From Nitrospirota bacterium (GTDB lineage Bacteria; Nitrospirota; Thermodesulfovibrionia; Thermodesulfovibrionales; Dissulfurispiraceae), in the NCBI GenBank assembly GCA_963790025.1, contig CAWBMP010000005.1:1-64000 (forward strand): DNA of 64,000 nucleotides, given 5' to 3'. Below, piece by piece: positions 1,544 to 17,689 of the stretch. Under the pieces are notes generated by a model. That model saw only the letters and a list, made by a program, of their open reading frames with translations. It was not told the DNA's origin and did no database searches. Both the position numbers and the translations under genes were made by a program. Position 1 is the stretch's first letter; the number at the start of each line of letters is the position of its first letter.

Positions 1544-2136
1544 CGGCATGTTTAGTCGGGAATCTTGACAGAAAATATCTGTCGTCAAGAGTGAATAAGA
1601 GAGTCGCTTAAATCATGTAATCAACAGGGAAACAAGCGTGGCGGATGGCGCGGACCGGTTCGGCTCCAGTGTTTACCTGATACCTGATAGTTTCACACTT
1701 CTGCAACTGACGAGGATTTTGTCCCGAAACATGCGTCCCGTGAGAAGAGAGAACAAAGCGTGACATTAGCCGGCATTGTGGCTTCGGCGATCATCGGCGG
1801 TGTCTGTTTCTTTTGAACATCAACTGAAGAAGGCTCAGTAAGGGGAAAAACCACTTATGTCCCGTAGTACACACAATCCATAGATCGCGTATAAAGCAGT
1901 CTTACCCTCTGGGCTCCACCGACAAGTCCTTAGTTTCAGGAAGACGCAACTTACTCAACATTACGCTGGGAAATTAACGCTGTTCACAGGGCATGCCCAC
2001 TCAGGTGCACCCAAGTACTCAACATTTTAGACATCTCAATGAAAGTGTTGGTTATCAAAATAATGCGTTAAAAGTCGTATGTTTGTTTCTAACTAAATAT
2101 GTAAAAAGATTGGACTGGGTTTTTATTCGCTCTGTT

Positions 2137-3396
2137 CTACCGGAGCTTATTAAGTACAAAATCGAATATTTCGTAATTGCGCAATTGATGCAAGTCGGCA
2201 ATGTTATTGAAGTGATTATTTATTGGGTGTGAAATTATAAAAGATACTTTGCTGTCTGCCACTCCTCCATGAGAGCGAAGGCGCATTCCGCCCAGTTTGG
2301 TCAGGTCATGGTTCTCTTTTTTGGTCCCAAGTACTGTTCCCTTATTTCCTATGACAATCAAATCTCCAATGCGATCGGGTGGTAATTCAAATTTTGTAAC
2401 GGCAGAATCGCGATCCATAACCATCTCTATTCCCGGAAGTTTACCGATGACATTTAAAACATCAGCAATGGATATGTGACTGCGAAAAAAAATCGTTGCA
2501 AATGATCCGAGAGCACCATGATGAGCAACGTATGGATCTGTAATCGGCAGGATAACCTTTGCCTTGCCTTCTCCTATTTCCCGGTCAAGCATTTCCTGCA
2601 GATATATAGCGTTTGGTGATCCATGCGCATTTGATTTATCATTCATCCCATGGTCTCCGGTTAAGGCAATGATGGCTCCTGAAGCGGCAAGCCGGCCGAA
2701 AGCATGGTCAAGAGCGTGATAAAAATCATTCGCTTCTTTTGTCCCGGGGGCATACGTATGCTGTATATAATCTGTCAGGGAGAGATACATTATGTCCGGT
2801 TTTTCTCTTTGGAGAATTCTTATGCCGGCTTCAAGCACGAAAAGTGAAAGGTCACCCGAATAAACATCCGGCAGAGGCTTCCCAACATATTCGAGGCAAT
2901 TGTCGATCCCGTTTTCTTCTTTTGTGCATTTATCGGCCTTCTCCGAAGAAAAAGTAATCCCATTTCTTATCTTGTGACGGAGCAATTTGCTTAATTTGTT
3001 CTTTGCGGTAATCGCCGCCACTTTTGCGCCATGCTCCGAAAATTTGGCCAGTATGCTTTCGGCTCTCATAAATTCCGGCTCAGTCATCATTACTTCTTCG
3101 CCGGTCTCGGGGTTCAGAAAATAATTTCCCGAGATTCCATGCACAGAAGGCGGAACGCCGGTTATGATCGATATATTGTTCGGGTTTGTAAAGCTGGGCA
3201 TAGCCCCGCAGGCTATCGCAGAGAAGCCCTCATCCATAAATTTGTTTATGTTTGGGAGCAAACCTCTTTCGAGTGCGGCAGTTATGTATTCAGGGTCTCC
3301 TCCATCTATGCAAACGACAACCACAGGAGAAGCGGGCCAACTATAACTTTTCCCGTTGACAGTAATCTGCCCGTGATGTCTACTGGAATTACTCAT
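2137..3396 (-). CDS. phnA: phosphonoacetate hydrolase (alkaline phosphatase superfamily)
   Basis: VVVVCIDGG, MPSFTNPNN (Thr nucleophile), TDYIQH, GDHGM, RSHGG. GGAGGA SD before the ATG at 3396. Confidence 0.92.
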   Translation of the reverse strand: MSNSSRHHGQITVNGKSYSWPASPVVVVCIDGGDPEYITAALERGLLPNINKFMDEGFSAIACGAMPSFTNPNNISIITGVPPSVHGISGNYFLNPETGEEVMMTEPEFMRAESILAKFSEHGAKVAAITAKNKLSKLLRHKIRNGITFSSEKADKCTKEENGIDNCLEYVGKPLPDVYSGDLSLFVLEAGIRILQREKPDIMYLSLTDYIQHTYAPGTKEANDFYHALDHAFGRLAASGAIIALTGDHGMNDKSNAHGSPNAIYLQEMLDREIGEGKAKVILPITDPYVAHHGALGSFATIFFRSHISIADVLNVIGKLPGIEMVMDRDSAVTKFELPPDRIGDLIVIGNKGTVLGTKKENHDLTKLGGMRLRSHGGVADSKVSFIISHPINNHFNNIADLHQLRNYEIFDFVLNKLR

Positions 3397-3517
3397 GCAA
3401 TCCTCCAATTTTTGTATGTTATTATGCGAGGATAATAACATACCCGCAAAAACTTCCCAAAGTTTTAAACATTTGATCGATACGCGTATGAATCCGGCAG
3501 AATAGTGGTGAGAAGTC

Positions 3518-3593
3518 AGTTTTAATCAAATTGTAATTCTTCTGTAACGTAGCTGTAACGTCGTTTATGCGATCATTGTCTAGACAACTAGAC
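3518..3593 (+). promoter_or_regulatory. phn promoter module 1: four Pho-box-like repeats plus a PhnF-like operator
   Basis: TTTAAT, TGTAAT, TGTAAC, TGTAAC at 3521, 3532, 3543, 3554 (11-bp period). Perfect palindrome TTGTCTAGACAA at 3576-3587, followed by CTAGAC. Confidence 0.8.
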
Positions 3594-3612
3594 GGCATTT
3601 TTGAGGTGTTTA

Positions 3613-4347
3613 ATGATCAAAAGGGACAATGGCGTTACATATTATCACCAACTCTCTAATATCCTTATTGAGCAGATAGGCGATGGGACTTTCAGAAAAG
3701 GCAATCGTCTGCCGACCGAAAATGAGCTTAGCCGGGCTTACGGACTGAACAGGCATACTGTAAGACGGGCTATTGAACGACTCGAAGACGAAGGTCTTAT
3801 CTATAAAATAAAGGGAAAGGGCTCATTTGTTGCGAATACTAAAATTCCTTTCAAAGTCTCCCAAAAAACGCAGTTTACAACATTGATGCTCTCCGCAGGT
3901 CTGACTCCTGATTCGAAATTGCTGAATTCATACGAAATTGCAGCGGGGAAAGAATTATCGGAAAAACTCCATATCGATCCGCCCAGCAAGGTCGTGGCAC
4001 TGGATATACTGAGGTATGCGGATGAAGTGCCTTTTTGCCATTCAATGTCCTATCTGAGATCGGACATCTTTCCGGGTCTTCTCAATTTGCTAAATGGTCT
4101 TTACTCCATCTATGGCGTGCTGAAAAAACACTACGACGTCGATATGCAAAGGGTATCTTCAACTTTCGAGGTTTCGATGCCGGGTGATCAGGAGATGGAC
4201 ATGCTGCAAATACCGGCAAGAATGCCTGTCCTTGTGGTCAGCAGCATATCAAGAACCCAGCATGGAGATTTGGTTGAATATTGCAAGACATCGTTCAGGG
4301 GAGACCTAAGCAGAATTACAGTTGATTTCGATAGTGAAAGGAAATGA
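3613..4347 (+). CDS. phnF: GntR/HutC-family phosphonate regulator
   Basis: RLPTENELSRAYGLNRHTVRRA winged HTH plus UTRA domain. GAGGTG SD before ATG 3613. First gene of the phn operon. Confidence 0.88.
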   Translation: MIKRDNGVTYYHQLSNILIEQIGDGTFRKGNRLPTENELSRAYGLNRHTVRRAIERLEDEGLIYKIKGKGSFVANTKIPFKVSQKTQFTTLMLSAGLTPDSKLLNSYEIAAGKELSEKLHIDPPSKVVALDILRYADEVPFCHSMSYLRSDIFPGLLNLLNGLYSIYGVLKKHYDVDMQRVSSTFEVSMPGDQEMDMLQIPARMPVLVVSSISRTQHGDLVEYCKTSFRGDLSRITVDFDSERK

Positions 4348-4446
4348 AGTTCAGGATAGGATCGGGAGAGCCGACCGCTTGCTCGATCCCGGTATCGGCT
4401 GTATAAACTCGATATTATTTCACTTTAAAAGGTTAATGGAGGAAAA

Positions 4447-5361
4447 ATGAAAAAGTATTTTCTGGCTTTCGGGCTGGCTGTGGCCCTGATCACAATTGTA
4501 AGCGGGGCGCTCCAGGCCAAACAGAACGGCCTGGTTATGGGACTCATTCCTATTGAAGACCCAAAAGCCATGATGGAGCAAATCCAGCCTATGAAGGCAT
4601 GGCTGGAGAAGGAAACGGGTCAGCATATCGAGCTTTTCACAGCCACTGATTACTCTGGTGTAATCGAGGCTATGCGGGCCAAGAAGGTCGATTTTGCCTG
4701 GTTCGGTCCCTTCTCCTATGTGCTTGCCCACGATCGGGCCGGGGCCGACGCCTTCGCTGTGGGCATCGATCAGAGGGGCAAAAGCACTTATTGCTCATAC
4801 CTCGTTGCCACCCCTGAAACAGCCCGTAAACTGGGCATCTCCACCGAGTTGGTGGGTGAGAAGGGAATGAAGGTGCTAGCCGAGAAGCTTGACAAACATA
4901 AAAATGAATTCACTTTTTCTTTTACTGACCCGGCTTCCACTTCCGGCTATGCTGTACCCAGGTACTTCATGTGGAAAGTTGGCATGGACCCGGAAAAGAT
5001 GTTTAAAAAAGTCGGATTCAGTGGCACTCATGATGCAGCCGAGTTGATGATAAAGAACAAGACGGTTGATATGGTAGCCGACAACGATATGACCAATCCT
5101 GCAATGGTCGCAAAAGGGCAAATATCGCCCCAGACCAATATCATTATCTGGAAATCCATGCCTCTTCCCGGTTCCCCCATAGCTTACAGGAATGATTTGC
5201 CTGAAAGCGTCAAGGCCGAACTGAAAAAAGCGATTGTCACGATCCCCAAAGAGGCGAACAAGGTCAAGGGCTTCGGCAATATAACCGGGTGGAAAATCGT
5301 GGGCGACAGCGACTATTCAGTTATTAAAGAGGTAAAGAAAGTTATAGACAGCCTGAGGTAA
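4447..5361 (+). CDS. phnD: phosphonate ABC transporter substrate-binding protein
   Basis: Signal peptide; DYSGVIEAM, DPASTSGY and SGTHD motifs. Confidence 0.92.
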   Translation: MKKYFLAFGLAVALITIVSGALQAKQNGLVMGLIPIEDPKAMMEQIQPMKAWLEKETGQHIELFTATDYSGVIEAMRAKKVDFAWFGPFSYVLAHDRAGADAFAVGIDQRGKSTYCSYLVATPETARKLGISTELVGEKGMKVLAEKLDKHKNEFTFSFTDPASTSGYAVPRYFMWKVGMDPEKMFKKVGFSGTHDAAELMIKNKTVDMVADNDMTNPAMVAKGQISPQTNIIIWKSMPLPGSPIAYRNDLPESVKAELKKAIVTIPKEANKVKGFGNITGWKIVGDSDYSVIKEVKKVIDSLR

Positions 5362-5442
5362 AAAGTTCGGTGGCGGTGAGGACAGGTTCCGGGCCTGAGC
5401 CAGCTATCTGTCCCCATCTGACACTGGATGGTCGGGGAGGGC

Positions 5443-6231
5443 ATGATGATAAAGATATCAAATCTCAGAAAACAGTTTAATGGCCACGAGGTACTGCGTG
5501 ATATCAATTTGCGGGTGAGCAAAGGCGAATCGATGGCCCTTATCGGCCCCAGCGGTTCCGGGAAAACCACCCTGATCCGGACGATCAACGGGTTCGTGGT
5601 GCCGGACTCAGGGAAAGTTTCAGTCGGCGGACGGGAAATAGAGTTTCACCGTCACGAGTCTATTCGCCAAAGCCGGAGGAAAATCGGCATGATCTATCAG
5701 CTTTTCAATTTGGTGGAACGGACCTCTGTCCACGTTAATGTGATGGCTGGAGCCCTGGGGAGACTGGATCGGGGCATTTCATTGCTCTCCTCCTCGATAG
5801 GCTTTTTCGGCAGGAAGGAAATGGAGAAGGCCAGGGAGCTTCTCAGTTTTGTCGGATTGGAAGATAAGATCGGGGAAAGAGTGGACAGGCTGAGCGGAGG
5901 CCAGAAACAGCGGGTTGCTATTGCCCGGGCACTGATGCAGGAGCCGGAGGTGCTCCTGGCGGACGAGCCAATAGCCAACCTTGACCCCAAATGCAGCCGC
6001 AAGATTATGGACCTCTTGCTTAAGATCAACTTTGAGAAAAAAATAACCCTCATTACGGTCCTCCATCATATTGACTCCGTACGCGACCATTTTGAGCGGG
6101 TTGTAGCACTTAAAGATGGAGCAATATGCTTTGATGCACATCCGCGCAGCCTGAATGATTACCATCTTCAGGATATATATACGTTTGACGAGGAAGCTGA
6201 ATGTCTTATAGCGAAAGCCGGAAATATGTGA
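5443..6231 (+). CDS. phnC: phosphonate ABC transporter ATPase
   Basis: [41 protein letters not shown]. Confidence 0.92.
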
Positions 6232-7757
6232 ACAGGACCACTAAGCTGCTGTTGTGGTCCATTTCTCTTGTCATTCTGGCCCTTTCATTCAGGATTTCGA
6301 AGGTCGATATCGGCTCGCTCATCGACGGATTATCACAATCTTTTGCTTTGTTCAGGGAGATGCTGCCGCCGAATTTCTCGAGGTGGAGGCTTTTTTTACG
6401 GCTTACTGCAGAAACCGTGACGATGGGTTTTTGGGGCACAGTGTTCGGGATGTTTTTTTCCGTTCCTCTCGGATTTCTCGCTGCCAGAAATACGGCCTGG
6501 AACCGATGGTCGTACAATCTTTCCAGGTGGTTGATCACCCTGCTGAGATCGGTCCCCGACATTGTATATGGTTTTTTTTTCGTGACCGCTTTCGGTCTCG
6601 GGCCGCAGGCGGGTGTTGTTGCCCTGACGATGGCATCGGTGGGGCTTCTTGGCAAGTTTTACTCTGAAGCAGTGGAAAGCATAGACGAGAAACCGTTGGA
6701 GGCGCTGAAGGCTACGGGCAGCCACGGCCTCGGTGTTATACGCCATGCCGTTTTTCCCCAAGTGCTACCCTTGTTCATGGGTTATAACCTTTATATGCTG
6801 GACCACAATATCCGGGTTGCCCTGGCGCTGGGAGTGATAGGCGCCGGAGGGCTTGGGGTGGAACTTTTTACGCAAATGCGCGCCTTTCATTATCAGAAAG
6901 CCGCTGCCATCCTCCTGATCATGCTGGCAGTTATCACGATAATCGATCGGGTTTCAGCAAGCTTGCGCAACAAAATCATTAAAGGCAGTTTTTTGAATTC
7001 AGAGACCCGGATTCAGGATATCGCGTTGCTGTTTATCATTGGCCTGTTAACTCTCATCTGCCTTAATTCTGTTCCGTTGGATATCAGGGAATTGGCAGCC
7101 GGGGCGCCGAGGGTTTGGGAATTTATGAAAGAAATGATGCCGCCGGATTTTTCCAGACTTGCGGTTTACCTGAAATTGATGCTGGAAACTGTGGCCATGG
7201 GTATTTGCGGCACATTTATGGCAATTGTCCTGGGAGTCCCGCTGGGCTTGATGGCGGCACGGAATGTCACCCATAATTCAATTATCTATAATCTTGCAAA
7301 GGAGATAACAAATTTATTGCGGGGAACGCCGGACCTCGTTTTTGCCCTCATCTTCGTGGCGGCGGTTGGTTTGGGTCCTTTTGCTGGTGTCCTGGCTCTG
7401 GGCCTGAACACCACGGGTTTTTTGGGGAAATTTTATGCCGAAGCCATTGAAAATGTCGATCCTAAGCCAATTGAAGCGGTGGAAGCTTCCGGGGCCAGGT
7501 TACTTCAGCGGATCACTCACGCAATTTTCCCGCAAGTGTTACCGCTCTTTAACAGCTATAACCTGTATATCTTGGAACGGAACATCCGGTATTCAACTAT
7601 AATGGGCATAGTAGGCGCCGGCGGTATTGGGTTTGAATTGGTCATGACTTCCAGGATGTTTGAATACCGCCAGATGGCGGCTATGCTTTTGATCATAGCG
7701 GCCACCATCATGCTGGTGGACTGTTTCTCTTCTTATCTAAGAAAAAAAGTGGTATGA
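6201..7757 (+). CDS. phnE: phosphonate ABC permease with two fused PhnE domains
   Basis: Two repeats of GKFY(S/A)EA(V/I)E..D.KP.EA..A.G...HA.FPQVLPLF..YNLY and G..GAGG.G.EL. Confidence 0.9.
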   Translation: MSYSESRKYVNRTTKLLLWSISLVILALSFRISKVDIGSLIDGLSQSFALFREMLPPNFSRWRLFLRLTAETVTMGFWGTVFGMFFSVPLGFLAARNTAWNRWSYNLSRWLITLLRSVPDIVYGFFFVTAFGLGPQAGVVALTMASVGLLGKFYSEAVESIDEKPLEALKATGSHGLGVIRHAVFPQVLPLFMGYNLYMLDHNIRVALALGVIGAGGLGVELFTQMRAFHYQKAAAILLIMLAVITIIDRVSASLRNKIIKGSFLNSETRIQDIALLFIIGLLTLICLNSVPLDIRELAAGAPRVWEFMKEMMPPDFSRLAVYLKLMLETVAMGICGTFMAIVLGVPLGLMAARNVTHNSIIYNLAKEITNLLRGTPDLVFALIFVAAVGLGPFAGVLALGLNTTGFLGKFYAEAIENVDPKPIEAVEASGARLLQRITHAIFPQVLPLFNSYNLYILERNIRYSTIMGIVGAGGIGFELVMTSRMFEYRQMAAMLLIIAATIMLVDCFSSYLRKKVV

Positions 7758-7797
7758 CGGCGACTTCCATGACCGAATACAATTGTGAGGATAAACA

Positions 7798-8211
7798 ATG
7801 GAATTTCAACTACTGATAGCAAAAATGGGTCACAGGTCCATAGAAAAGCTTATCGGACTTGTGCCGGCGGATGAAATCGATATTATAAAAGGGCCCGAGA
7901 CAGGCCTCCTTATGATGGCTGTAAAGGATGCTTTTGAAACCGAGTTCTACCTCGGGGAGATACTTGTGACTGAAGCTGAAGTCCGGTATAGCAACAAGAA
8001 AGGATATTCGATGATTATGGGAGATGAACCTGAACGGGCCATTGCTGCGGCTGTCGCCGACGCCATAATGAGAAGCGACAATAATATTTTAAAAACGAAG
8101 ATGAACAAATTGTTTCTATCGTGGGAAAAAAGATTGAACACGAACGAGAAACGACAGGAAAACCTCACAGCTAAAACAAAGGTGAATTTCGAAAATATGA
8201 GAAAAGAATAG
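7798..8211 (+). CDS. phnG: C-P lyase subunit PhnG
   Basis: PETGLLMM...FYLGEILVTEAEV signature. Confidence 0.9.
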   Translation: MEFQLLIAKMGHRSIEKLIGLVPADEIDIIKGPETGLLMMAVKDAFETEFYLGEILVTEAEVRYSNKKGYSMIMGDEPERAIAAAVADAIMRSDNNILKTKMNKLFLSWEKRLNTNEKRQENLTAKTKVNFENMRKE

Positions 8212-8254
8212 GATGCAAGTCCATGATATTTGAGGGTCATTGGTAAGCGGCATG

Positions 8255-8332
8255 AGTTTTAATTAAATTGTAATTATTCTGTAACTTTGATGTAACGTCA
8301 TTTGTGTGATAATCCTGTCTAGACAACTAGAC
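8255..8332 (+). promoter_or_regulatory. phn promoter module 2 (copy of module 1) upstream of phnH
   Basis: The same hexamers at 8258, 8269, 8280, 8291; TGTGATAAT extended -10-like box; TGTCTAGACAACTAGAC at 8316-8332. Confidence 0.8.
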
Positions 8333-8384
8333 AGCTTTTGAGACTTCATAACGAGAAGAGATGAGAAAAGGATAAAAGTTATCC

Positions 8385-8990
8385 ATGGAGAAAATATCGT
8401 TAGCTAATCAGAATACATACAGGATAATCCTCCAGTCAATGTGCCATCCTGGAAAGGTTTACCAGTTATTTTGTGAATGTTCCGACAGGTTCGAACTGGA
8501 AAGTTTGTTGCCCTGTCCGATCAGCCCGGAAGGCCTGTTTTCTGTTCTTCTGACACTTATGGATAACGAGGTGAGCTTTTTTATTTATGGAGATGAAGCT
8601 GTTCACATGGAAGTTGCAATATCCGAAACCACCGGAAGCACTGTTGCCGGTATTGCATCCGCCGATTTCATAATTATTCCCGGAGGTAAGAGCTGGGGAG
8701 AACTGCTGAAGGCAAAGAGAGGAAGCGTCGAATATCCCGATACAGGCGCAACCGCAATTTTTGTAATTGATACCATCGAGAACAGAAAAAATGGGAAAAA
8801 TAATGTTGTACTGAAAGGGCCCGGCATAGAGGATTGTATCGAAATGTCCGCCGGACCGTTGCTGAAAGACGAGTTTTCCTGCATCAAAAGGGTAAACGCG
8901 GAATTTCCATTAGGGATAGACTGTATCTTCGTAGATAAATCTGACCGAATTATGTGTATTCCCAGATCGACAGTCATAGAGGTGAAATAG
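8385..8990 (+). CDS. phnH: C-P lyase subunit PhnH
   Basis: Q..YR.IL.SM.HPG, LLTLMDNEV, GS.EYPD.GAT, LKGPGI, FPLGID, CIPRST. Confidence 0.92.
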   Translation: MEKISLANQNTYRIILQSMCHPGKVYQLFCECSDRFELESLLPCPISPEGLFSVLLTLMDNEVSFFIYGDEAVHMEVAISETTGSTVAGIASADFIIIPGGKSWGELLKAKRGSVEYPDTGATAIFVIDTIENRKNGKNNVVLKGPGIEDCIEMSAGPLLKDEFSCIKRVNAEFPLGIDCIFVDKSDRIMCIPRSTVIEVK

Positions 8991-8991
8991 G

Positions 8992-10116
8992 ATGGGTTAC
9001 GTAGCTGTAAAAGGCGGCACTGAGGCAATTGAGAATGCTGCAAAGCTGTTTTCTTACGAAAGGATAAAGGGCAGGAGCCGACTGCTTGAGATCGACCAAA
9101 TCAGGGAGCAACTTTATCTCGCGGTCGACAAGGTCATGGGCGAAGGTTCTCTGTACGCGCCTGATCTCGCTGCTCTTGCCATAAAGCAATCTGCAGGCGA
9201 CACTTTCGAGGCGTCTTTTATGCTCAGGGCTTACAGGGCCACCAGACCCAGAGTCGGGTATTCAATACCTCAGTCGACAGCGGAGATAAAGGTCATTAGA
9301 AGAATTTCTGCAGCTTTCAAAGATGTGCCTGGCGGACAAATTCTGGGACCTACAACAGATTATACGCTCAGACTCCTCGATTTCGAGCTGCTGGACGAAA
9401 GAGAGGACACGAGACAGGCATATTCAAAAAATCTTTTCAAAGGGGTAATGGATGCCGCATCTCTTCCTGAATCTTTTCCCAAAGTGATAGACCTGATGAG
9501 AAAAGAAGGGCTTTTGACGGAGCGACCGGGGAATTCTGATCCTGGCAGCGCTGGTATATATGATGTGACCAGACAATCCCTGACCTTTCCGGCCTCCCGA
9601 AGCGCAACTCTTCAGTCGATGGCAAGGGGAGAGACAGGAGGTCTGCTTTTACTTGCATACTCCAATATGCGCGGATACGGCGATATTCATCCTACAGTCG
9701 GAGAACTGAGGGTTGGATATATCCCAGTGAAAATAAGGCACCGTCACAGCGGAAAATATTATACGATCGGAGAAGTTAAAGTAACGGAAGCTGAGGTCAT
9801 TGCCAAATTTACGACGGGTGAAGGGTCGCCGAAATTTACTCTCGGTTACGGTCTCTGTTTCGGGCACAATGAAACCAAAGCTATTTCCATGGCTATTCTC
9901 GACAGGGCGATGCAAGCAGAAGAGAAACGGGCGCCGTCCGAAAATCAGGAATTTGTTCTATCCCATATCGATGGAATCGATGCACTTGGCTTTTGTGCAC
10001 ACTGGAAACTGCCGCATTATGTGACGTTTCAATCCGATCTGGACAGGCTGAGAAAGGCCCGGGAGGCCGATCATTTGTCCGCGGTCCGGAAAGCGGGTGA
10101 TCAAAGTGAAACTTGA
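8992..10116 (+). CDS. phnI: C-P lyase subunit PhnI
   Basis: MGYVAVKGG..AI, RRISAAFKDVPGGQILGPT.DY, HWKLPHYVTFQS. Confidence 0.95.
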   Translation: MGYVAVKGGTEAIENAAKLFSYERIKGRSRLLEIDQIREQLYLAVDKVMGEGSLYAPDLAALAIKQSAGDTFEASFMLRAYRATRPRVGYSIPQSTAEIKVIRRISAAFKDVPGGQILGPTTDYTLRLLDFELLDEREDTRQAYSKNLFKGVMDAASLPESFPKVIDLMRKEGLLTERPGNSDPGSAGIYDVTRQSLTFPASRSATLQSMARGETGGLLLLAYSNMRGYGDIHPTVGELRVGYIPVKIRHRHSGKYYTIGEVKVTEAEVIAKFTTGEGSPKFTLGYGLCFGHNETKAISMAILDRAMQAEEKRAPSENQEFVLSHIDGIDALGFCAHWKLPHYVTFQSDLDRLRKAREADHLSAVRKAGDQSET

Positions 10117-10996
10117 CAAATATTTGCGAATAAAAAAAGACAAACATAAGTCTGTCGAATACAATTTTGCATTTCTGGACGAGAGCGCGAAGAAGGAAAT
10201 AAGGCGTAAGATACTTAAGGCAGTGGCCATCCCGGGATACCAGGTCCCATTCGCATCACGTGAACTGCCGATTGCCAAGGGGTGGGGAACAGGAGGACTC
10301 CAGATCACCCTTTCTATCATCGGCAGCGACGATATCCTCAAAGTCATAGACCAGGGCTGTGACGGAAGCGTCAATGCGATGAATATAAAAAAATTTATCG
10401 GCAGGGTAACGGGTGTAAAGACCACAACCAATACCGGTGAAGCCACGATTATTCAAACAAGGCACAGGGTCCCTGAGGAGAAGCTAAGCGGACACCAAAT
10501 CCTTGTTCTCCAGGTCCCTTTTCCCGAAGCGTTGCGCATAGTGGAACCCTCCGAACTCGAAACGCGGCGAATGCACGGAGAGTCGGACTACAGCAGGATG
10601 TGGCTTTATCTTTATGAAGATATAGTACGGTTTAATGAAATAAGTATAGGCGCAAGGTATCCGGTGACAGTAAATGGAAGATATATTATGGACCCAAGTC
10701 CTATACCCAGATGGGACATACCTAAACTGAACATGGCCGATGCAGTCTGTATCTTTGGGGCCGGGCGGGAAAAAAGGATCTATGCGATTCCTCCTTTCAC
10801 CAGGGTTGAGCCCCTGGAGTTTGAGGATTTCAAGTTCAGGATCGAAGATTTCAAAGGAGAGGCTTGCTGTAAGTGCGGCAGCACGGACGTATTTCTCGAC
10901 GAGATAATTGATGAAGCTACCGGCAGAAGGATTTATCAATGCTCGGATACGGGATATTGCGATACAAGGACGCGGTTCGATGGAGCAATTCATTAG
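10097..10996 (+). CDS. phnJ: C-P lyase radical SAM subunit PhnJ
   Basis: YNFAFLDE, AIPGYQVPF, GWGTGG, IIQTRHR and the C-terminal CxxC...CSDT.YC cluster. Exact start uncertain. Confidence 0.95.
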   Translation: MIKVKLDKYLRIKKDKHKSVEYNFAFLDESAKKEIRRKILKAVAIPGYQVPFASRELPIAKGWGTGGLQITLSIIGSDDILKVIDQGCDGSVNAMNIKKFIGRVTGVKTTTNTGEATIIQTRHRVPEEKLSGHQILVLQVPFPEALRIVEPSELETRRMHGESDYSRMWLYLYEDIVRFNEISIGARYPVTVNGRYIMDPSPIPRWDIPKLNMADAVCIFGAGREKRIYAIPPFTRVEPLEFEDFKFRIEDFKGEACCKCGSTDVFLDEIIDEATGRRIYQCSDTGYCDTRTRFDGAIH

Positions 10997-11444
10997 AACT
11001 GATGTGGAAATAAGGGAAGCAACAGAACAGGATTTGAATCCTATCCTTTCGCTTTACGGACAGATCGGCATGGATAACGGAAACGTACTGGCGCTCGATG
11101 AAGCGGAGAGCCTTTTTAGAAAGATAAAATCCTATCCCGATTACAAGTTGTATGTAGTCGTCGATGATAAGCATATTGTAGGAACATTTTCACTTCTGAT
11201 AATGGATAACCTGGCCCACATGGGTTCACCATCGGGGATCCTGGAAGATGTTGTCGTACGTGAGGACTTCAGAAGGCGGGGGATAGGACGATTGATGATG
11301 AATTTTGCAATGGACCGCTGTAAAGAACGAGGATGCTATAAGATTGCATTATCGTGCAATATGCAACGTGAATCAGCGCACTTTTTTTATGAAGCACTGG
11401 ATTTCAAGAAGCACGGATACAGTTTTGTCGTGGACCTTGCATAA
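10980..11444 (+). CDS. GNAT N-acetyltransferase (PhnO-like)
   Basis: EDVVV...RRRGIG acetyl-CoA motif and AHFFYEALDF. Lies inside the phn operon. Confidence 0.8.
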   Translation: MEQFIRTDVEIREATEQDLNPILSLYGQIGMDNGNVLALDEAESLFRKIKSYPDYKLYVVVDDKHIVGTFSLLIMDNLAHMGSPSGILEDVVVREDFRRRGIGRLMMNFAMDRCKERGCYKIALSCNMQRESAHFFYEALDFKKHGYSFVVDLA

Positions 11445-11454
11445 AAGGAGATCA

Positions 11455-12294
11455 ATGTTGAATCTTAGCAGCGGGCCGGTTATGAAGGTGGAAGGTCTCA
11501 CAAAAATTTATGGTGACGGATGTCCTCTGTGCAGCGAATCAACAGGTCCTGACTACGAAACGAATATATGCAGTCACTGCGGTTCTGTGGTAGCATGCGC
11601 GAATATCACATTCGAGCTTTGTCCTGATGAGGTTCTAGGAATAGTTGGCGAGAGCGGATCAGGCAAGAGCACTCTTGTAAAACTGATGCATTTCGATTTC
11701 GAGGCGACCGCCGGGACCATATACATAAACGGTTCGGCGGCTAATGTCCTATCCCTCAGCCCGTTTCAAAAAAGGCAGATCAGAAATGCACGTATGGGCA
11801 TAGTATATCAGAATCCGTACCATGGACTCAGGATGGAAGTAAGTTCAGGAGGCAATATATCGGAACGACTGATTATGGCTGGATGGAGAAATATAAGAGC
11901 GATGCGTGAACGTGCCTCCTATCTCCTTCACAAAACAGAAATCCCTGTTACAAGGATTGATGAGCCGCCGAAGAATTTCAGCGGGGGAGAACAGCAAAGG
12001 GTCCAGATTTCGAAGGCATTGTCGAATAATCCGGTGATTCTTTTTTTGGACGAAGTGACTACAGGTCTTGATCTTTCCGTTCAGGCGAGGGTGCTTGATT
12101 TGATCAGGGTGCTCCAAAACGATCTGCATTTGTCCATTATTGTCGTCTCCCATGATCTCGGCGTTATAAGGCTTCTGACAACAAGGACCATGGTGATGAA
12201 ATACGGCAGGGTTGTCGAATCAGGTCTTACAGACCAGGTATTAGAGGACCCTCAGCATCATTATACACAACTCCTTGTGAGCTCACAATTATAG
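11455..12294 (+). CDS. phnK: C-P lyase ABC-type ATPase PhnK
   Basis: GIVGESGSGKST, VYQNP, FSGGEQQR, LDLSVQARVLD, EDPQHHYTQLLV. AGGAG SD before ATG 11455. Confidence 0.93.
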   Translation: MLNLSSGPVMKVEGLTKIYGDGCPLCSESTGPDYETNICSHCGSVVACANITFELCPDEVLGIVGESGSGKSTLVKLMHFDFEATAGTIYINGSAANVLSLSPFQKRQIRNARMGIVYQNPYHGLRMEVSSGGNISERLIMAGWRNIRAMRERASYLLHKTEIPVTRIDEPPKNFSGGEQQRVQISKALSNNPVILFLDEVTTGLDLSVQARVLDLIRVLQNDLHLSIIVVSHDLGVIRLLTTRTMVMKYGRVVESGLTDQVLEDPQHHYTQLLVSSQL

Positions 12295-12302
12295 GAGGAG
12301 AT

Positions 12303-13028
12303 ATGAGAATAGGCGTCATTTCTGATGTGCATGGCAATTATGAGGCACTTATAACAGTTTTGAGAGAGATGGATAATGAGGGAGTGGATCTGATAATCAA
12401 TTCAGGCGATAACATAGGGTATTCGGCTTTTCCTGATGAATGTGTATCCTTGCTGGCAGAAAGAAAAGTCACTTCAGTTATGGGCAACTATGACGAGGCA
12501 GGCTCCATGTTTCGTATTTCCTGCGGGTGTGGTGACGCGGATGACGAAACTAACAGAATAAGATTTGCTTCACTCAGATGGACACAGGAAAAGCTTTTGG
12601 ACGAAACGAGAAAATATCTGTCCTCACTGCCTGCCAGATATGAATTCGAGACCGGATATGGGAAAGCTCTTATGTTTCATGGAGGCGTTGAAAACCTGAC
12701 GCAATGGATCACGGAAAACGACTCTGAACTGCTCGAAGCCGTTTCCGTCAAATGCGTCGCAAGGCTCGTAATAATGGGACATACTCACAAGCCTTTTGCA
12801 AGGCAAGTAAACGGTACTCTCTTCGTAAATCCAGGAGCTGTAGGCAGGCCTTTTGATGGAGACCCGAGGGCGTCTTTCGCAGTTATCGATGCCGGAGATG
12901 ATATAAAGGTGAAGTTCAGGCGAGTAGGGTACGATGTCGAAAAAAATATAAATGCCCTTGTAACCGCCGGTCTTCCCCCTGAAATAGGAGTTATGCTCAG
13001 AAGGGGGAGGGATTCACACATTGCTTAA
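12303..13028 (+). CDS. calcineurin-like metallophosphoesterase (YfcE/MJ0936-like)
   Basis: SDVHGN, GDNIGY, GNYD, HG, GHTH and NPGAVG motifs; internal CGC. Confidence 0.88.
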   Translation: MRIGVISDVHGNYEALITVLREMDNEGVDLIINSGDNIGYSAFPDECVSLLAERKVTSVMGNYDEAGSMFRISCGCGDADDETNRIRFASLRWTQEKLLDETRKYLSSLPARYEFETGYGKALMFHGGVENLTQWITENDSELLEAVSVKCVARLVIMGHTHKPFARQVNGTLFVNPGAVGRPFDGDPRASFAVIDAGDDIKVKFRRVGYDVEKNINALVTAGLPPEIGVMLRRGRDSHIA

Positions 13029-13722
13029 AGTAGACAACCTTTGCAAGACTTTCCATATTCATATTCTCGGCAACAAAGTTATCAATGCATGCTGCGGCAT
13101 TTCATTTCACGTAAAAAGAGGTGAGTTTCTGGGTCTATCAGGGCCGAGCGGATCCGGGAAAAGCACTATTCTCAAATGCATTTACCGGACCTATTTGTCG
13201 ACAGAGGGAAGCATTTGGTTCGATTCGGCGGCGCATGGAGAAATCGATATCGCGTCTGCCCCCAATCAAGTGGTGCTGGATATCAGGAGAAAAGAGGTCG
13301 GGTATGTTTCCCAGTTTTTAAAGATAATCCCCAGAGTACCGGCAATTGAAATTGTTGCTGAACCTCTGGTAACAAAAAACAGGATGCCGCCCTATGAAGC
13401 GAGGAAAATAGCGGGCGAGCTTTTAAGGAAACTCAATATTCCCGATTATTTGTTTGACGCCTATCCCTCCAGTTTCAGCGGGGGAGAACAGCAAAGGGTG
13501 AATATCGCGCGAGCCTTGATCTGGTCGCCCCGTTTGTTGCTGCTCGATGAACCCACCGCATCCCTGGACAGGAGTTCGATTGATATCGTCATGGACTTGC
13601 TCGGGACGCTTAAAAAGCAGGGTACTACAATGATAGGCATATTTCATGACCCCAAAGTAATGGATATGATTACTGATAGAGCATATGAGATAAAGCGGGA
13701 TGTTGCAAGCCATGCGGCGTAA
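13021..13722 (+). CDS. phnL: C-P lyase ABC-type ATPase PhnL
   Basis: GPSGSGKST, GYVSQFL..IPRV, FSGGEQQRVNIAR, GIFHD. Confidence 0.93.
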   Translation: MLKVDNLCKTFHIHILGNKVINACCGISFHVKRGEFLGLSGPSGSGKSTILKCIYRTYLSTEGSIWFDSAAHGEIDIASAPNQVVLDIRRKEVGYVSQFLKIIPRVPAIEIVAEPLVTKNRMPPYEARKIAGELLRKLNIPDYLFDAYPSSFSGGEQQRVNIARALIWSPRLLLLDEPTASLDRSSIDIVMDLLGTLKKQGTTMIGIFHDPKVMDMITDRAYEIKRDVASHAA

Positions 13723-14875
13723 CCATGCCGTCATAATCGAAAATGCCGACATTGTGACTCCTTCAGGAATACTCGCCGGAAGTTCTATGAAAATAGAAGC
13801 GGGCATTATATCGGAGATAAAGGAGGGAGCCATAACATCGGCAGGCAGAAGAATTGACGCCGGGGGAGCGCACATTATTCCCGGATTTGTGGATCTTCAC
13901 AGCGATGCCATTGAAAAGGAGATCGAGCCAAGGCCCAATACCTGTTTTCCGAAGAATGTCGCAATTGTCGAACTGGATAAAAAGCTTGCAGCATGCGGAG
14001 TCACAACTATTTTTCATGCGCTGTCTTTTGCCGAAGGAGAGATTGGCGTGCGTTCCAACAAAATGGCTACCGAAATAATAAGAGAAATAGACAGACTTGG
14101 TCCCGAGTTGAGCGTAAAAACCAGGGTGCATGCGAGGTTCGAGATTACGGATACGAGCGCTGTTCCATATCTGGAGGAGCTTTTGAACAGCGGACAGATT
14201 CATCTCCTCTCATTTATGGACCATACGCCGGGGCAAGGTCAATATAAAGACGTAGCTTCTTTTAAAAATTACTTTGGAAAGGTTTACAAAAAAAGTAACG
14301 AAGAGTTGGACAGGATAATCGACCGTAAGCTCTGCGCGCAAAAGGACTCCCTGGACTGCGTGGAGCGTGTAATAAATTTATGTGATTCGCTTGGCCGCCC
14401 TATGGCATCTCATGATGATGATTCGCCGGAAAGAATACAGTGGCTTAAGAAGAAGCATATCGGCATATCGGAATTTCCTGTTAATGTAGAAACTCTCAGG
14501 GCAGCTAAAGAGATGGACATTTTTACATGTCTCGGCACCCCGAATGTTCTGAGGGGTAATTCTCAGGTAGGGAACCTGAGCGCACGGGATGCGTTGTCCG
14601 GGGGATATGGCGATATGCTTTGTTCCGATTATTCACCTATGACCATCCTCCACGCAGTATTTGCGATCGTAAACAACGGGATTCGTCCGCTCCACGAAGC
14701 GGTCAATCTGGTGAGTCTTAATCCTGCCAGGGCGGTCGGCATTGCCGGAGAGACCGGGTCTATTAAGGAAGGAAAGGATGCGGATTTTAGTATTGTAGGG
14801 ACAGTTGACGGCATTCCGAAAATATTGAGAACCTTTGTATCGGGCAGGGAGGTGTTTTCCGTATGTGGCTGCTAG
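13700..14875 (+). CDS. phnM: ribose 1-methylphosphonate 5-triphosphate diphosphatase
   Basis: PGFVDLHSD, MDHTPGQGQY, ASHDDD, ISEFP, LCSDY. Confidence 0.94.
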   Translation: MLQAMRRNHAVIIENADIVTPSGILAGSSMKIEAGIISEIKEGAITSAGRRIDAGGAHIIPGFVDLHSDAIEKEIEPRPNTCFPKNVAIVELDKKLAACGVTTIFHALSFAEGEIGVRSNKMATEIIREIDRLGPELSVKTRVHARFEITDTSAVPYLEELLNSGQIHLLSFMDHTPGQGQYKDVASFKNYFGKVYKKSNEELDRIIDRKLCAQKDSLDCVERVINLCDSLGRPMASHDDDSPERIQWLKKKHIGISEFPVNVETLRAAKEMDIFTCLGTPNVLRGNSQVGNLSARDALSGGYGDMLCSDYSPMTILHAVFAIVNNGIRPLHEAVNLVSLNPARAVGIAGETGSIKEGKDADFSIVGTVDGIPKILRTFVSGREVFSVCGC

Positions 14876-15792
14876 GAGCCAAAATAGATGAAATAAGAGT
14901 CGACGGCAACTTGAGCGCTCTGCGGAGAGACCTGGGACTTTTGGCCGGGATGCAGCTCAAGGCGGTTGAACTGCCGGTTCACGGCCTCGATGTGATCAGG
15001 AATGGAAAACCCGACAAAAAGAGAATTCACGAAATCAAAAATATACTCGAGGATTTCGATTTTACTTGTAGCGTGCACGCACCGAACCCTGTGAACCTTA
15101 TGGACAAAGAGCATCCCTCGCTGCATGCTTCTGTTTTGAGGTCGAGCGCCGAGTTTGCCGGGGAGATAGGCTCGAAAGTCCTTGTCTGCCATCCAGGCAG
15201 ATTCATGCCCGAAGAAATATTCCCGCTTGGGGTCCAGGTCCGGATGCCGGATGCCGAGAAAGAAGAACTTCTCGATCGGGAAGCTTCTATTATAGAAAAG
15301 ATTTCCTCTGAATTTCCCGACGTAGTCATTTGTATGGAAAACGCACGTCCCTATCTTTTCCATTCTCCCTATTGTTACGCTGAAAAAATCGATCTGTTAA
15401 GCAAACAGGTACTCAAGATAGGCAGGCAGAATGTGAGAATAAATCTCGATTTCGGGCATCTCTACATGGCCTCCAGGTTTTATGGTTTCGACCCTGTCCT
15501 GGCAGCCTCCGGAATAAAGCATCTGATAGCCCACACACATATACATGACAATTTTGGTATCGTAAATTTTCACCACGAAAAGGTGCAGATAAATTTGCTG
15601 CCATTCGGGAAAGGCGATGCACATATGCCTGTCGGCTGGGGAGAGATTCCAATCTCAGAAATTCTCTCCACTTTTATAGATTTATTCAAGGGAATGCTCA
15701 TGATGGAACTGCGGAGCAGATATCTTGAAGACATCCCGGAATCCAAAAAAAACCTCGAAAGGATTTTGACGGACTATGAACAATTCCACTGA
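14863..15792 (+). CDS. xylose isomerase-like / AP endonuclease 2 TIM-barrel metalloenzyme
   Basis: SVHAP, CHPG, CMEN, LDFGH, HIHDN, DAHMP and MEL metal-ligand pattern. Confidence 0.82.
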   Translation: MWLLGAKIDEIRVDGNLSALRRDLGLLAGMQLKAVELPVHGLDVIRNGKPDKKRIHEIKNILEDFDFTCSVHAPNPVNLMDKEHPSLHASVLRSSAEFAGEIGSKVLVCHPGRFMPEEIFPLGVQVRMPDAEKEELLDREASIIEKISSEFPDVVICMENARPYLFHSPYCYAEKIDLLSKQVLKIGRQNVRINLDFGHLYMASRFYGFDPVLAASGIKHLIAHTHIHDNFGIVNFHHEKVQINLLPFGKGDAHMPVGWGEIPISEILSTFIDLFKGMLMMELRSRYLEDIPESKKNLERILTDYEQFH

Positions 15793-16432
15793 TACGGCTT
15801 TCCACGCATGGAACAGGATATGGATGAATGAGGAAGACCGCGCCGGCTGGACCAGGCCGGAACAGGATGTAATTGACATTGTTCCGCTCCTCAGGTCCAG
15901 AGGCGTGAGAGATGTACTCGACTTGGGATGCGGCATAGGCAGGCATTCCCTCTTTCTTGCGTCACAGAAATTTGAAGTGTGTTCCCTTGACGCAAGCGCA
16001 GCAGGCCTTGAGATTGCACGCAGCAGTGCAGTTAATGCGGGACTGGCGATTGAATGTTGTTTGTCAAGGATGACCGAGCTGCCGTTCAGGGCATGCAGCT
16101 TTGATTATATACTGGCGTGGAACGTAATTTATCACGGAGACCCCAATGTTGTTCAGCGGAGCCTCAATGAGATTTTCCGCATACTACGTCCCGGAGGCAT
16201 CTTTCAGGGTACGATGCTCTCGAAGCAGAATGTGCTTTACCAAAAGGGATGTATGGTTGCGAAGGATACATTCGTACTCGCCGGTATCGACGAAAAGGAC
16301 CACCCTCATTTTTATTGCAATGCAAATGAATTGACGAAGCTGCTGACCGGTTTCGATATATTTCTTATCAGGCATACAGAACACACCGGACCGGGATCGT
16401 ATCACTGGCATTTCAGCGCGGAGAAGTCATAG
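15776..16432 (+). CDS. class I SAM-dependent methyltransferase
   Basis: VLDLGCGIGRH motif I, FDYILAWNVIYH, LRPGG. Confidence 0.88.
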   Translation: MNNSTDTAFHAWNRIWMNEEDRAGWTRPEQDVIDIVPLLRSRGVRDVLDLGCGIGRHSLFLASQKFEVCSLDASAAGLEIARSSAVNAGLAIECCLSRMTELPFRACSFDYILAWNVIYHGDPNVVQRSLNEIFRILRPGGIFQGTMLSKQNVLYQKGCMVAKDTFVLAGIDEKDHPHFYCNANELTKLLTGFDIFLIRHTEHTGPGSYHWHFSAEKS

Positions 16433-16462
16433 AACCGGTTTGAGTGAAAGGAATAACAGGGC

Positions 16463-17461
16463 ATGAAACCAAAAGTTGTTATTACCAATTGGGTTCATCA
16501 GGAAACAATAGATTTCCTGAGAGGTACGTGCGATGTCATACCGAATACGAATCATGTACCGCTCACGAGGGAAGAGATATCAATGCGTGCGCAGGACGCT
16601 CAGGCAATCATGGTTTTTATGCCAGATTCCATCGATGATGACTTCCTGCATAAATGTCCGGTTTTAAAGGTCATAGGCGCCGCGCTTAAGGGATATGATA
16701 ATTTTGATGTGGATGCCTGCACGAGGCGTGGAATCTGGTTCACTATTGTGCCTGACTTGCTGACAATACCAACCGCTGAACTTGTAATAGGGTTGCTGAT
16801 CGGCATAACGCGCAAGATACTCCCTGGCGATTATTCAATACGCAGCGGAAAGTTCACAGGCTGGAGGCCTGTTTTCTATGGCTCGGGACTTTCCGGAAGC
16901 ACCTTGGGTATCATAGGTATGGGTAGTGTAGGACAAGCCGTTGCCAGGAGACTGTCAAATTTCGATCTCAAAATTATTTATAATGATCTGTCGCGCGTGT
17001 CAGAACAAATCGAGAGATCTCTCAATTTGCAATATGTCACATTAGAAAACCTTTTGGAAGAAAGCGATTACATTGTCCCGCTGGTATCATTGAATTCTGC
17101 TACAAGGCATTTGATCGATTCCGGTGCAATTGCCAGCATGAAACCCGGGAGCTATGTAATTAATGCCTGCAGGGGTTCAGTAGTGGATGAAATCGCGGTG
17201 GCAGCCTCCCTGGATTCAGGACACCTTGCGGGATATGCCGCCGATGTGTTCATGATGGAAGATTGGGTCTTGCCCGAACGTCCGCGCAACATACCCAAAG
17301 AACTTCTTGATAATGTCGATCGTACTTTATTTACGCCACATCTGGGTTCTGCTGTTGATAGCGTAAGACGGGAAATCTCAATGGAGGCCGCCCGGAATAT
17401 TATTGAGGCCCTTAATGGCCGGCATCCAAAAGGTGCTGTTAATGACCCGCTAAGTTTGTGA
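16463..17461 (+). CDS. ptxD: NAD-dependent phosphite dehydrogenase
   Basis: PtxD-diagnostic [50 protein letters not shown] (catalytic Lys/Arg/Glu/His present). Confidence 0.92.
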
Positions 17462-17558
17462 GTTTTTAACCGTACTTTGCAATCGCTGGCTGTGCGTTTC
17501 CGTTCCTACTCCACATATAGGTGACTCGAACCTAAACTCTTTAGTATAAGTAGGAGCC

Positions 17559-17633
17559 GAGAATCCAGCTTTTGATAGTTTTTTTCCGAAATTAACATAT
17601 TCAGGAAATTGCGATTGGTGTAGGAGGAAGAAG
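17559..17633 (-). repeat. dispersed intergenic repeat, copy 1
   Basis: The reverse complement of 17559-17621 matches 22627-22689 at 55/63 positions (hand alignment). Confidence 0.85.
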
Positions 17634-17689
17634 CATTCTTTGATCATCGTTTCCCTTTCTTAAGAAGTCTGCTTAAGCTTACCGTAATC

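Follow-up and report, generated by a model that had tools for sequence, protein, structure and literature searches.

We describe a reduced-phosphorus locus at positions 2137-17461 of a 64,000-nt stretch of contig CAWBMP010000005.1 (the whole stretch is called the window below), which comes from a Nitrospirota bacterium. The locus is best read as a composite phosphorus-scavenging cluster, Pho-controlled and PhnF-repressed, that is organized around a widespread anaerobe-type C–P lyase operon and in which a TIM-barrel protein encoded directly after phnM replaces PhnP and PhnN. We put the probability of this reading at roughly 0.6. The host genome is metagenome-derived and comprises 3.45 Mb in 5 contigs, with a completeness of 98.8%.

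Among the broad-range routes that draw phosphorus from phosphonates, C–P lyase is the main one, and with methylphosphonate it also releases methane. In this pathway, PhnGHIJKLM attach the alkylphosphonate to ribose, and radical cleavage of the C–P bond by PhnJ yields 5-phosphoribosyl 1,2-cyclic phosphate (PRcP).

The TIM-barrel protein encoded after phnM

The TIM-barrel gene lies at 14863-15792 on the + strand, and its product belongs to the AP endonuclease 2/xylose-isomerase-like superfamily (PF01261, 80 bits vs 31). Here and below, genes were called from the open reading frame (ORF) listing together with Pfam and NCBIfam scans, and scores are given as bits versus the curated cut-off. The AlphaFold model, with a predicted local distance difference test (pLDDT) score of 81 and a predicted template modelling (pTM) score of 0.84, reveals a xylose-isomerase-like barrel, and the protein passes the combined test of PF01261 and a (beta/alpha)8 fold. 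In the fold searches, for which we used Foldseek on the PDB and VIA-align run wide (Z 20-26 to family structures), the nearest structures were MJ1311 (Z 26, function unassigned), ketose 3-epimerases (Z 24-25), and endonuclease IV (Z 22, 1qtw).

Many histidine, aspartate, and glutamate residues are invariant in the alignment of 18 family members. For the ligand test, these 18 sequences were aligned in MAFFT with two endonuclease IV sequences and with the one-metal epimerase UlaE as a control. The reference positions were the nine metal-binding residues of Nfo, the endonuclease IV of E. coli, with the residue types checked on the K-12 sequence. Eight of the nine align to invariant residues of the TIM-barrel family, namely H72, H110, E159, D196, H199, D252, H254, and E282. 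UlaE has only the four or five ligand positions found across the superfamily; the ligands at 110, 199, 252, and 254 are missing from it. In addition, the local motifs of the family and of Nfo match, including H-x5-NL, HPG, x-E-N, D-x-x-H, FG-x3-D-x-H-x3-G-x-G, and a glutamate after the last strand. With eight of nine ligands in place, the TIM-barrel protein appears to keep an endonuclease IV-type three-metal site.

Since the genome encodes a separate endonuclease IV homologue, we do not regard the TIM-barrel protein as the repair enzyme. Nor is it CbiR, as it reaches 29 bits where the NF041277 model requires 105. CbiR, a member of the same superfamily, is described as hydrolyzing a ribosyl phosphodiester in cobamides (PMC7733943). 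PF01261 and the TIM fold are shared with both endonuclease IV and CbiR, whereas a conserved insertion at residues 231-259 is specific to the TIM-barrel family.

The TIM-barrel protein is a widespread C–P lyase accessory. A database search returned 628 homologues, and the names given among the matches listed are 'sugar phosphate isomerase/epimerase' and 'xylose isomerase'. We also searched species-representative genomes with the 18-sequence alignment, which gave 110 stretches, and kept the best 80 as a set of TIM loci. These come from Desulfobacterota-, Nitrospirota-, and Geobacter-type metagenome-assembled genomes (MAGs) and isolates, plus Methanocella. phnM stands immediately upstream of the TIM-barrel gene in 61 of the 80 loci and somewhere in the locus in 71, and phnJ is present in 60. 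No phnI-M gene was found in the fetched stretch of nine loci, three of which have <500 bp upstream of the TIM-barrel gene and two of which have phnD or phnC adjoining it. No fused, longer form (542-2000 aa) turned up at E<=1e-20, which counts as weak evidence. On one contig of a Methanocella MAG (L009), phnM is followed in a row by two TIM-barrel homologues with a hexapeptide transferase between them; C–P lyase genes are described as very rare in archaea (PMC12704751).

We then compared genomes that do and do not encode the TIM-barrel protein. The exclusion test covered 31 genomes with PhnJ, comprising six of 301 from the host phylum and 25 of 401 from the phylum of Desulfacinum, and two of them (G000 and G003) were TIM-positive by choice. 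None of the 18 TIM-positive genomes has a PhnN-like protein at E<=1e-25, a PhnP over the cut-off, or a TIGR03223 2H esterase at E<=1e-10, whereas the 13 TIM-negative genomes include seven with a PhnN-like protein (four over the cut-off), one with a PhnP over the cut-off, and five with a TIGR03223-like protein. At least one of these three enzymes is therefore found in 0/18 TIM-positive versus 7/13 TIM-negative genomes. In 17 of the 18 TIM-positive genomes, the TIM-barrel gene is on the phnJ contig within ~7 kb. Likewise, six TIM-negative loci carry PhnN-, PhnP-, or 2H-type genes at or just past the slot downstream of phnM, and in three of these six, a TIGR03308 hexapeptide transferase precedes the slot genes. 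Because many of the genomes are MAGs, the genomes are related, and two TIM-positive ones were chosen, we treat this table as suggestive and not as a statistic.

Taken together, the ligand pattern, the CbiR precedent, and the exclusion data suggest that the TIM-barrel protein is a three-metal phosphoesterase acting on the cyclic phosphate product of PhnJ, a proposal that we hold at close to an even chance. Its proposed role on the PhnJ cyclic phosphate and its slot after phnM are the same as those of PhnP, the TIGR03223 2H phosphodiesterase, and PhnPP. However, its fold, the AP endonuclease 2 barrel, differs from that of PhnP (metallo-beta-lactamase), of the 2H enzyme, and of PhnPP (PHP), and the TIM-barrel protein also excludes PhnN (0/18). 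The exclusion of PhnN as well makes it probable that the route bypasses the step from ribose 1,5-bisphosphate to phosphoribosyl pyrophosphate (PRPP). PhnPP of Eggerthella lenta, which has a PHP fold, hydrolyzes the cyclic phosphate in two steps, and the TIM-barrel route may resemble it. In a wider form of the proposal, which we consider slightly short of even odds, the family would constitute a new C–P lyase enzyme class that converts PRcP to ribose 5-phosphate and phosphate, or to a bisphosphate that housekeeping enzymes finish. PhnP and PhnN would then be dispensable, and the family would form the standard pathway end in anaerobic Desulfobacterota-, Nitrospirota-, and Geobacter-type bacteria, perhaps also in Methanocella. 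A literature search of openly accessible full texts found no paper linking phn genes to the TIM-barrel family.

The family might instead be a one-metal sugar-phosphate isomerase or epimerase that acts on a ribose-derived product, such as a ribose or ribulose phosphate, or on a sugar-like phosphonate, with PRcP being opened by an unrelated housekeeping enzyme. The top fold matches, ketose 3-epimerase-like proteins and MJ1311, favor such an activity, and so do the public names among the matches listed, such as 'sugar phosphate isomerase/epimerase'; these names, however, are automatic annotations. The four endonuclease IV-specific ligands that the family keeps and UlaE lacks count against one-metal chemistry. 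The six TIM-negative genomes (of 13) that have PhnJ and none of the TIM-barrel protein, PhnN, PhnP, and the 2H esterase evidently manage without a dedicated enzyme, which is thus not strictly needed. Against this, the joint exclusion of PhnN, PhnP, and the 2H esterase is what would be expected of a protein replacing the whole pathway end. On this evidence, we consider an isomerase or epimerase unlikely.

The phosphoesterase proposal and the composite cluster built on it have to be weighed against the same six genomes and against several further observations. The loop at 231-259, the most conserved family-specific region, is modelled at low confidence, and the fold searches do not separate a phosphoesterase from an epimerase. 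The ninth Nfo ligand (H216) is unaligned in the family, and when the family was compared with Nfo by hhalign, the result was misaligned and fell short of significance. The genome sets of the exclusion test are small, related, and mostly MAGs. Two of the six genomes, each of 1.8 Mb (G103 and G335, with loci L093 and L095), lack the TIM-barrel protein, PhnN, PhnP, and the 2H esterase, although their phn operons are very like that of the window, with PhnJ 75-77% identical and a fused PhnE. Four of the 80 loci have 10 kb upstream of the TIM-barrel gene and no phn gene nearby; their homologues, two in one Nitrospirota MAG (L021 and L039) and one each in L034 and L055, are 49-55% identical and may represent a second family role or paralogues. 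In L005, a weak PHP-domain ORF (28 bits; L005:4577-5272) directly after the TIM-barrel gene may be PhnPP-like, and in that locus it might be the enzyme that actually hydrolyzes the cyclic phosphate. For the remainder of the locus, PhnD scores about equally against the solved structures of PhnD (96-100 bits), of PtxB (88-93 bits), and of HtxB (88 bits), which does not place it with the phosphonate, phosphite, or hypophosphite binders in particular, and the assignment of the regulatory motifs to PhnF and PhoB rests on likeness to consensus sequences.

Gene content and regulation of the locus

The ORF listing and the Pfam and NCBIfam scans confirm the 17 genes of the first-pass annotation in their coordinates and order. 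phnA is on the - strand and is followed by two groups on the + strand, phnF-phnD-phnC-phnE-phnG (3601-8211) and phnH-phnI-phnJ-GNAT-phnK-metallophosphoesterase-phnL-phnM-TIM-methyltransferase-ptxD (8385-17461), with a gap of 173 bp between phnG and phnH. From phnH to ptxD, each intergenic gap measures -23 to +30 bp when the most plausible starts are used, in line with the earlier statement that these genes overlap or lie at most 30 bp apart. The starts used were ATG 10980 or GTG 11004 for the GNAT gene and ATG 11455 behind AAGGAG for phnK.

phnA (2137-3441) encodes a phosphonoacetate hydrolase (TIGR02335, 559 vs 407.6) with a likely start at Met16 (3396), and phnF (3601-4347) encodes a GntR/HutC-type repressor (TIGR02325, 162.5 vs 156.8; Pfam GntR and UTRA). 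The importer is made up of the periplasmic binding protein PhnD (4447-5361; PF12974, 185 bits; TIGR01098, 206 vs 112), the ABC ATPase PhnC (5428-6231; TIGR02315, 275 vs 266), and PhnE (6201-7757; TIGR01097, 552 vs 217, in two matched stretches), a fused double permease with both halves in one 518-aa protein.

All seven subunits of the C–P lyase core PhnGHIJKLM are encoded together: phnG (7798-8211; TIGR03293, 91 vs 89), phnH (8385-8990; TIGR03292, 123 vs 91.5), phnI (8992-10116; PF05861, 480 bits), phnJ for the radical C–P bond-cleaving subunit (10097-10996; PF06007, 474 bits), phnK (11455-12294, ORF open from 11305, with the Shine-Dalgarno sequence AAGGAG; TIGR02323, 237 vs 303, best match), phnL (13021-13722; TIGR02324, 256.0 vs 256.3), and phnM (13700-14875; NF011990, 420 vs 233). 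PhnD (253 vs 261), PhnK (237 vs 303), and PhnL (256.0 vs 256.3) fall under equivalog cut-offs, yet these are clearly their best matches. Identity to the E. coli proteins is 59% for PhnJ, 45% for PhnI, 50% for PhnK, and 43% for PhnL. E. coli PhnJ residues G32, C241, C244, C266, and C272, which are the radical glycine, the three cluster cysteines, and the thiyl cysteine, align to G47, C257, C260, C282, and C288. PhnJ was found in 6/301 sampled genomes of the host phylum and in 0/23 of the host family, a rarity that points to acquisition of the C–P lyase locus by transfer.

Two putative regulatory modules of ~85 bp precede the two + strand gene groups. Module 1 lies in the phnA/phnF divergent region (3519-3605), with phased repeats at 3531-3559 and the putative palindromic operator TGTCTAGACAACTAGAC at 3577-3593, and module 2 lies in the phnG-phnH gap (8258-8345), with repeats at 8268-8296 and the putative operator at 8316-8332. 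The modules show 86% mean column identity in a two-sequence alignment (A2, 114 columns). Each contains three 7-mers (C/T)TGTAA(C/T) at 11-bp spacing and, ~20 bp past these repeats, the perfect 10-bp palindrome TGTCTAGACA followed by ACTAGAC. Modules 1 and 2 are the only places in the 3.45-Mb genome that have the 17-mer, the palindrome, or the strict repeat CTGTAAC-N4-[AC]TGTAAC.

Tandem phased repeats with <=2 mismatches are found at four genome sites only: the two phn modules, a site 55-85 bp upstream of pstS in a canonical pstSCAB-phoU operon (PstS, 406 vs 339), and a site on contig 4. As they are shared with pstSCAB-phoU, we read the repeats as a putative Pho box of the host. The operators of HutC-family repressors are of the GTnTAnAC type, and by its resemblance to this consensus TGTCTAGACA is a putative PhnF operator. 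Among 108 fetched loci, the palindrome was found in just one (L044), so the operator sequence is not conserved among relatives. The contig 4 site (C4:1677491-1677520; L107, ~4992-5020) lies between two divergent ORFs (201 and 172 aa), neither of which matches an NCBIfam model at E<=1e-10; both may be unknown Pho-regulon genes.

With the same predicted Pho box and PhnF operator before phnF and phnH, the whole gene set would respond together. The duplicated module, which occurs nowhere else in the genome as a combination, and the repeats shared with pstS directly support co-regulation of the locus as predicted from the DNA, so the earlier description of one co-regulated locus is upheld. In addition, a consensus scan predicted no sigma-70-like promoter on the + strand in 13031-17572, and no convincing terminator was predicted inside the long phnH-ptxD operon.

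Phosphite oxidation, phosphonoacetate hydrolysis, and the single importer

The last gene of the operon, ptxD (16463-17461, + strand), encodes an NAD-dependent phosphite dehydrogenase. It reaches 460 bits against the solved Ralstonia PtxD (6ih2) and 366 bits against the Pseudomonas stutzeri PtxD structures of the 4e5k type, while its best non-PtxD match, a glyoxylate reductase, reaches 193 bits. Judged by these scores, the last gene is a real PtxD. In the alignment, the sequence near the conserved R, E, and H is the same as that of 6ih2 or almost so. These structure matches, together with the model scores, show that the three routes of the first-pass annotation (PhnA, C–P lyase, and PtxD) are real.

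A single-protein locus search with PtxD gave four loci, and the closest genome relatives of the protein reside in canonical ptxABC-ptxD clusters (L083-L085). ptxD also recurs with C–P lyase genes. It follows the TIM-barrel gene in L029 and L072 and is fragmented in L044 (two intact and one fragmented among the 80 TIM loci), it lies ~5 kb from phnJ in G202, and all three PtxD genes among the 31 PhnJ genomes are phn-linked. ptxD is thus a sporadic but recurrent add-on to C–P lyase operons. A different arrangement is present in L099 (G495), where ptxABC-like genes and ptxD stand directly upstream of phnH-M, with a TIGR03308 hexapeptide transferase, a PhnN-like gene, and a 2H esterase downstream; this locus is a second, TIM-free way of joining phosphite oxidation to C–P lyase.

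True PhnA was found in one of the 31 PhnJ genomes, the host itself. Inspection of its N terminus revealed no signal peptide, which places PhnA in the cytoplasm and means that its substrate must be imported. An alkaline-phosphatase-superfamily protein (PF01663) that is 27-30% identical to PhnA, and is not PhnA, recurs beside TIM-type operons, after the TIM-barrel gene in L011, L012, and L014 and also in L050, L053, L054, L060, and L072.

The usual partners of these routes are absent, as the first-pass annotation had noted for the locus. In the whole 3.45-Mb genome, PhnP has no match, and the best matches to PhnN (53 bits vs 156), PhnY (278 vs 636), and PhnW (100 vs 401) stay under their cut-offs. 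The locus has no ptxABC, and a tblastn search of the genome at E<=1e-10 found no second PhnE/PtxC-type permease. PtxE and ptd genes are likewise missing from the locus, to which the search for them was confined. By tblastn, each of the 17 locus proteins is found just once in the genome. The accompanying premise that C–P lyase normally comes with phnN and phnP describes one known layout; several others are known, some with a 2H phosphodiesterase and some with none, according to the relevant part of a 2023 review (PMC10574752).

PhnDCE is the sole such importer in the genome. The earlier suggestion of one transporter for three routes is borne out as far as the importer is single, and PhnDCE may feed all three. 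A second PhnD/PtxB-family binding protein is encoded at C3:235218-236330 (L106:5218-6330), in a neighborhood that also codes for a cytochrome c7, a PAS-HAMP histidine kinase, and a sigma-54 response regulator. AioXSR/ArrXSR oxyanion sensors have a similar layout, and there were PDB matches to ArrX and AioX; with the kinase and the sigma-54 regulator beside it, the protein seems to serve sensing and not transport.

Accessory enzymes, alternative readings, and known systems

Three further enzymes are encoded in the operon. The GNAT acetyltransferase (10980-11444, ORF open from 10908, + strand; PF00583, 69 bits) has homologues at least 40% identical in 28 of the 80 TIM loci, located between phnJ and phnK or before phnG. 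It was rejected as a PhnO orthologue (NF007530, 32 vs 142; no blastp match to E. coli PhnO at 1e-3) and may have a PhnO-like role. The YfcE-type metallophosphoesterase (12303-13028, + strand; TIGR00040, 72 vs 56; PF12850, 100 bits) matches PDB 3rqz with 82 bits. It stands between phnK and phnL here and in two Nitrospirae MAG loci (L004 and L005, 60% identity; 2/80), and it is confined to these three loci in this position. The class I S-adenosylmethionine methyltransferase (15776-16432, + strand; PF13649 and PF08241) is TehB-like, and its PDB and Atlas matches are generic class I or TehB-like only. Homologues occur in four of the 80 TIM loci (L024, L026, L028, and L037); phn-linked copies, 52-53% identical, are present in 4/4 PhnJ genomes of one genus of the host phylum, and none was found in the 25 PhnJ genomes of the other phylum. 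The methyltransferase is confined to one Nitrospirota-type lineage.

The metallophosphoesterase, the TIM-barrel protein, and the methyltransferase had been read in the first-pass annotation as one three-enzyme extension joining the three routes. Translational coupling of the three genes within one operon here agrees with this, as do the pairs seen elsewhere, metallophosphoesterase with TIM in L004 and TIM with methyltransferase in L037. However, their distributions are independent (TIM in 80 loci, the metallophosphoesterase at this position in two, the methyltransferase in four), none of the 80 related loci holds all three, and the other metallophosphoesterase homologues, 33-40% identical, are not near phn genes. 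A coherent set of three is thus improbable. Conservation of the accessory genes with C–P lyase holds for the TIM-barrel gene and not for the other two, and the undescribed part of the system is the TIM-barrel enzyme, not the trio. Even less probable is a dissimilatory role of ptxD in place of phosphorus assimilation. The host lineage and its relatives are sediment anaerobes, and phosphite oxidizers such as Desulfotignum are described as using a PtxD (PMC4046663); here, though, no ptd-type genes stand beside ptxD, its neighborhood being what was searched, ptxD is the final gene of an operon whose promoter carries Pho-box-like repeats that also precede pstS, and its closest relatives lie in ptxABC-ptxD uptake clusters. 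Least credible of all is an assembly chimera, which might be suspected of a metagenome-derived genome in a window that begins at a contig end. Contigs of the public DNA run X1, possibly the source sample, cover all 30 bins of window positions 2000-18000 at >=99% identity without joints; one contig spans the phnM/TIM junction, and among the 13 pieces listed for X1 and a second run, X2, which are short, none spans methyltransferase/ptxD. Moreover, the unusual junctions recur in independent genomes (phnK-metallophosphoesterase-phnL and phnM-TIM in L004, TIM-methyltransferase in L037, and TIM-ptxD in L029), and the GC content of the locus, 46.95%, is typical of the genome (47.4 +/- 1.8%).

In the composite cluster that we favor, PhnDCE would import reduced-phosphorus compounds, and the TIM-barrel protein would open the PRcP left by PhnJ in place of PhnP and PhnN, possibly dephosphorylating it fully; this is the new part of the scheme. 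The GNAT protein would acetylate aminoalkylphosphonates in a PhnO-like manner, cytoplasmic PhnA would hydrolyze imported phosphonoacetate, and PtxD would oxidize imported phosphite to phosphate. As lineage-restricted additions, the metallophosphoesterase may remove a second phosphate, and the TehB-like methyltransferase may detoxify co-imported oxyanions.

The E. coli phnCDEFGHIJKLMNOP operon shares PhnCDE, PhnF, and the PhnGHIJKLM core with the host. However, the host lacks PhnN and PhnP genome-wide, its GNAT protein is not a PhnO orthologue, and it has an internal promoter module before phnH, the additional metallophosphoesterase, TIM-barrel, methyltransferase, and ptxD genes, and a divergent phnA. 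The E. coli operon is Pho-controlled, as the motifs suggest for the host. PtxD is common to the host locus and to ptxABCDE of Pseudomonas stutzeri and ptxABCD of Ralstonia sp. 4506, whereas ptxABC and ptxE are missing from the host locus, and ptxD, as the last gene of a C–P lyase operon, must rely on PhnDCE. The P. stutzeri htx operon reportedly links hypophosphite and phosphite genes to C–P lyase homologues, as White and Metcalf are said to have described in 2004. In contrast to the PhnWAY pathway, the host has neither PhnW nor PhnY.

A further comparison is with Desulfotignum phosphitoxidans, a phosphonate-using sulfate reducer with an 'atypical' phnGHIJKLM cluster that lacks PhnN and PhnP (PMC4046663, Poehlein et al. 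2013). Both organisms are anaerobes with a core without PhnN and PhnP, while a TIM-barrel gene goes unmentioned in the relevant passages of that paper (PMC4046663). The sections of the 2023 review that deal with accessory genes list PhnP, PhnN, and PhnO, report a 2H phosphodiesterase (TIGR03223, called rcsF) in 16/54 operons without phnP and operons that have none, and do not mention a TIM-barrel enzyme (PMC10574752). According to the survey part of a 2025 PNAS paper, 1.2% of bacterial genomes have ptxD and 10% have phnJ, and the physical linkage of these genes is not discussed there (PMC12704751).

A C–P lyase pathway end without PhnP and PhnN is a known gap, for which the TIM-barrel family provides a concrete candidate, and the main interest of the locus is this family as the likely missing pathway end in anaerobes. 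Of second interest is the recurrent joining of ptxD to C–P lyase operons without a ptx transporter. Gene-survey counts of phosphite users would be affected, since a ptxD that lacks ptxABC would be passed over as non-functional. For the organism itself, our analysis suggests a sediment anaerobe in which a single phosphate-starvation switch governs both phosphite oxidation and phosphonate cleavage, by way of PhnDCE.

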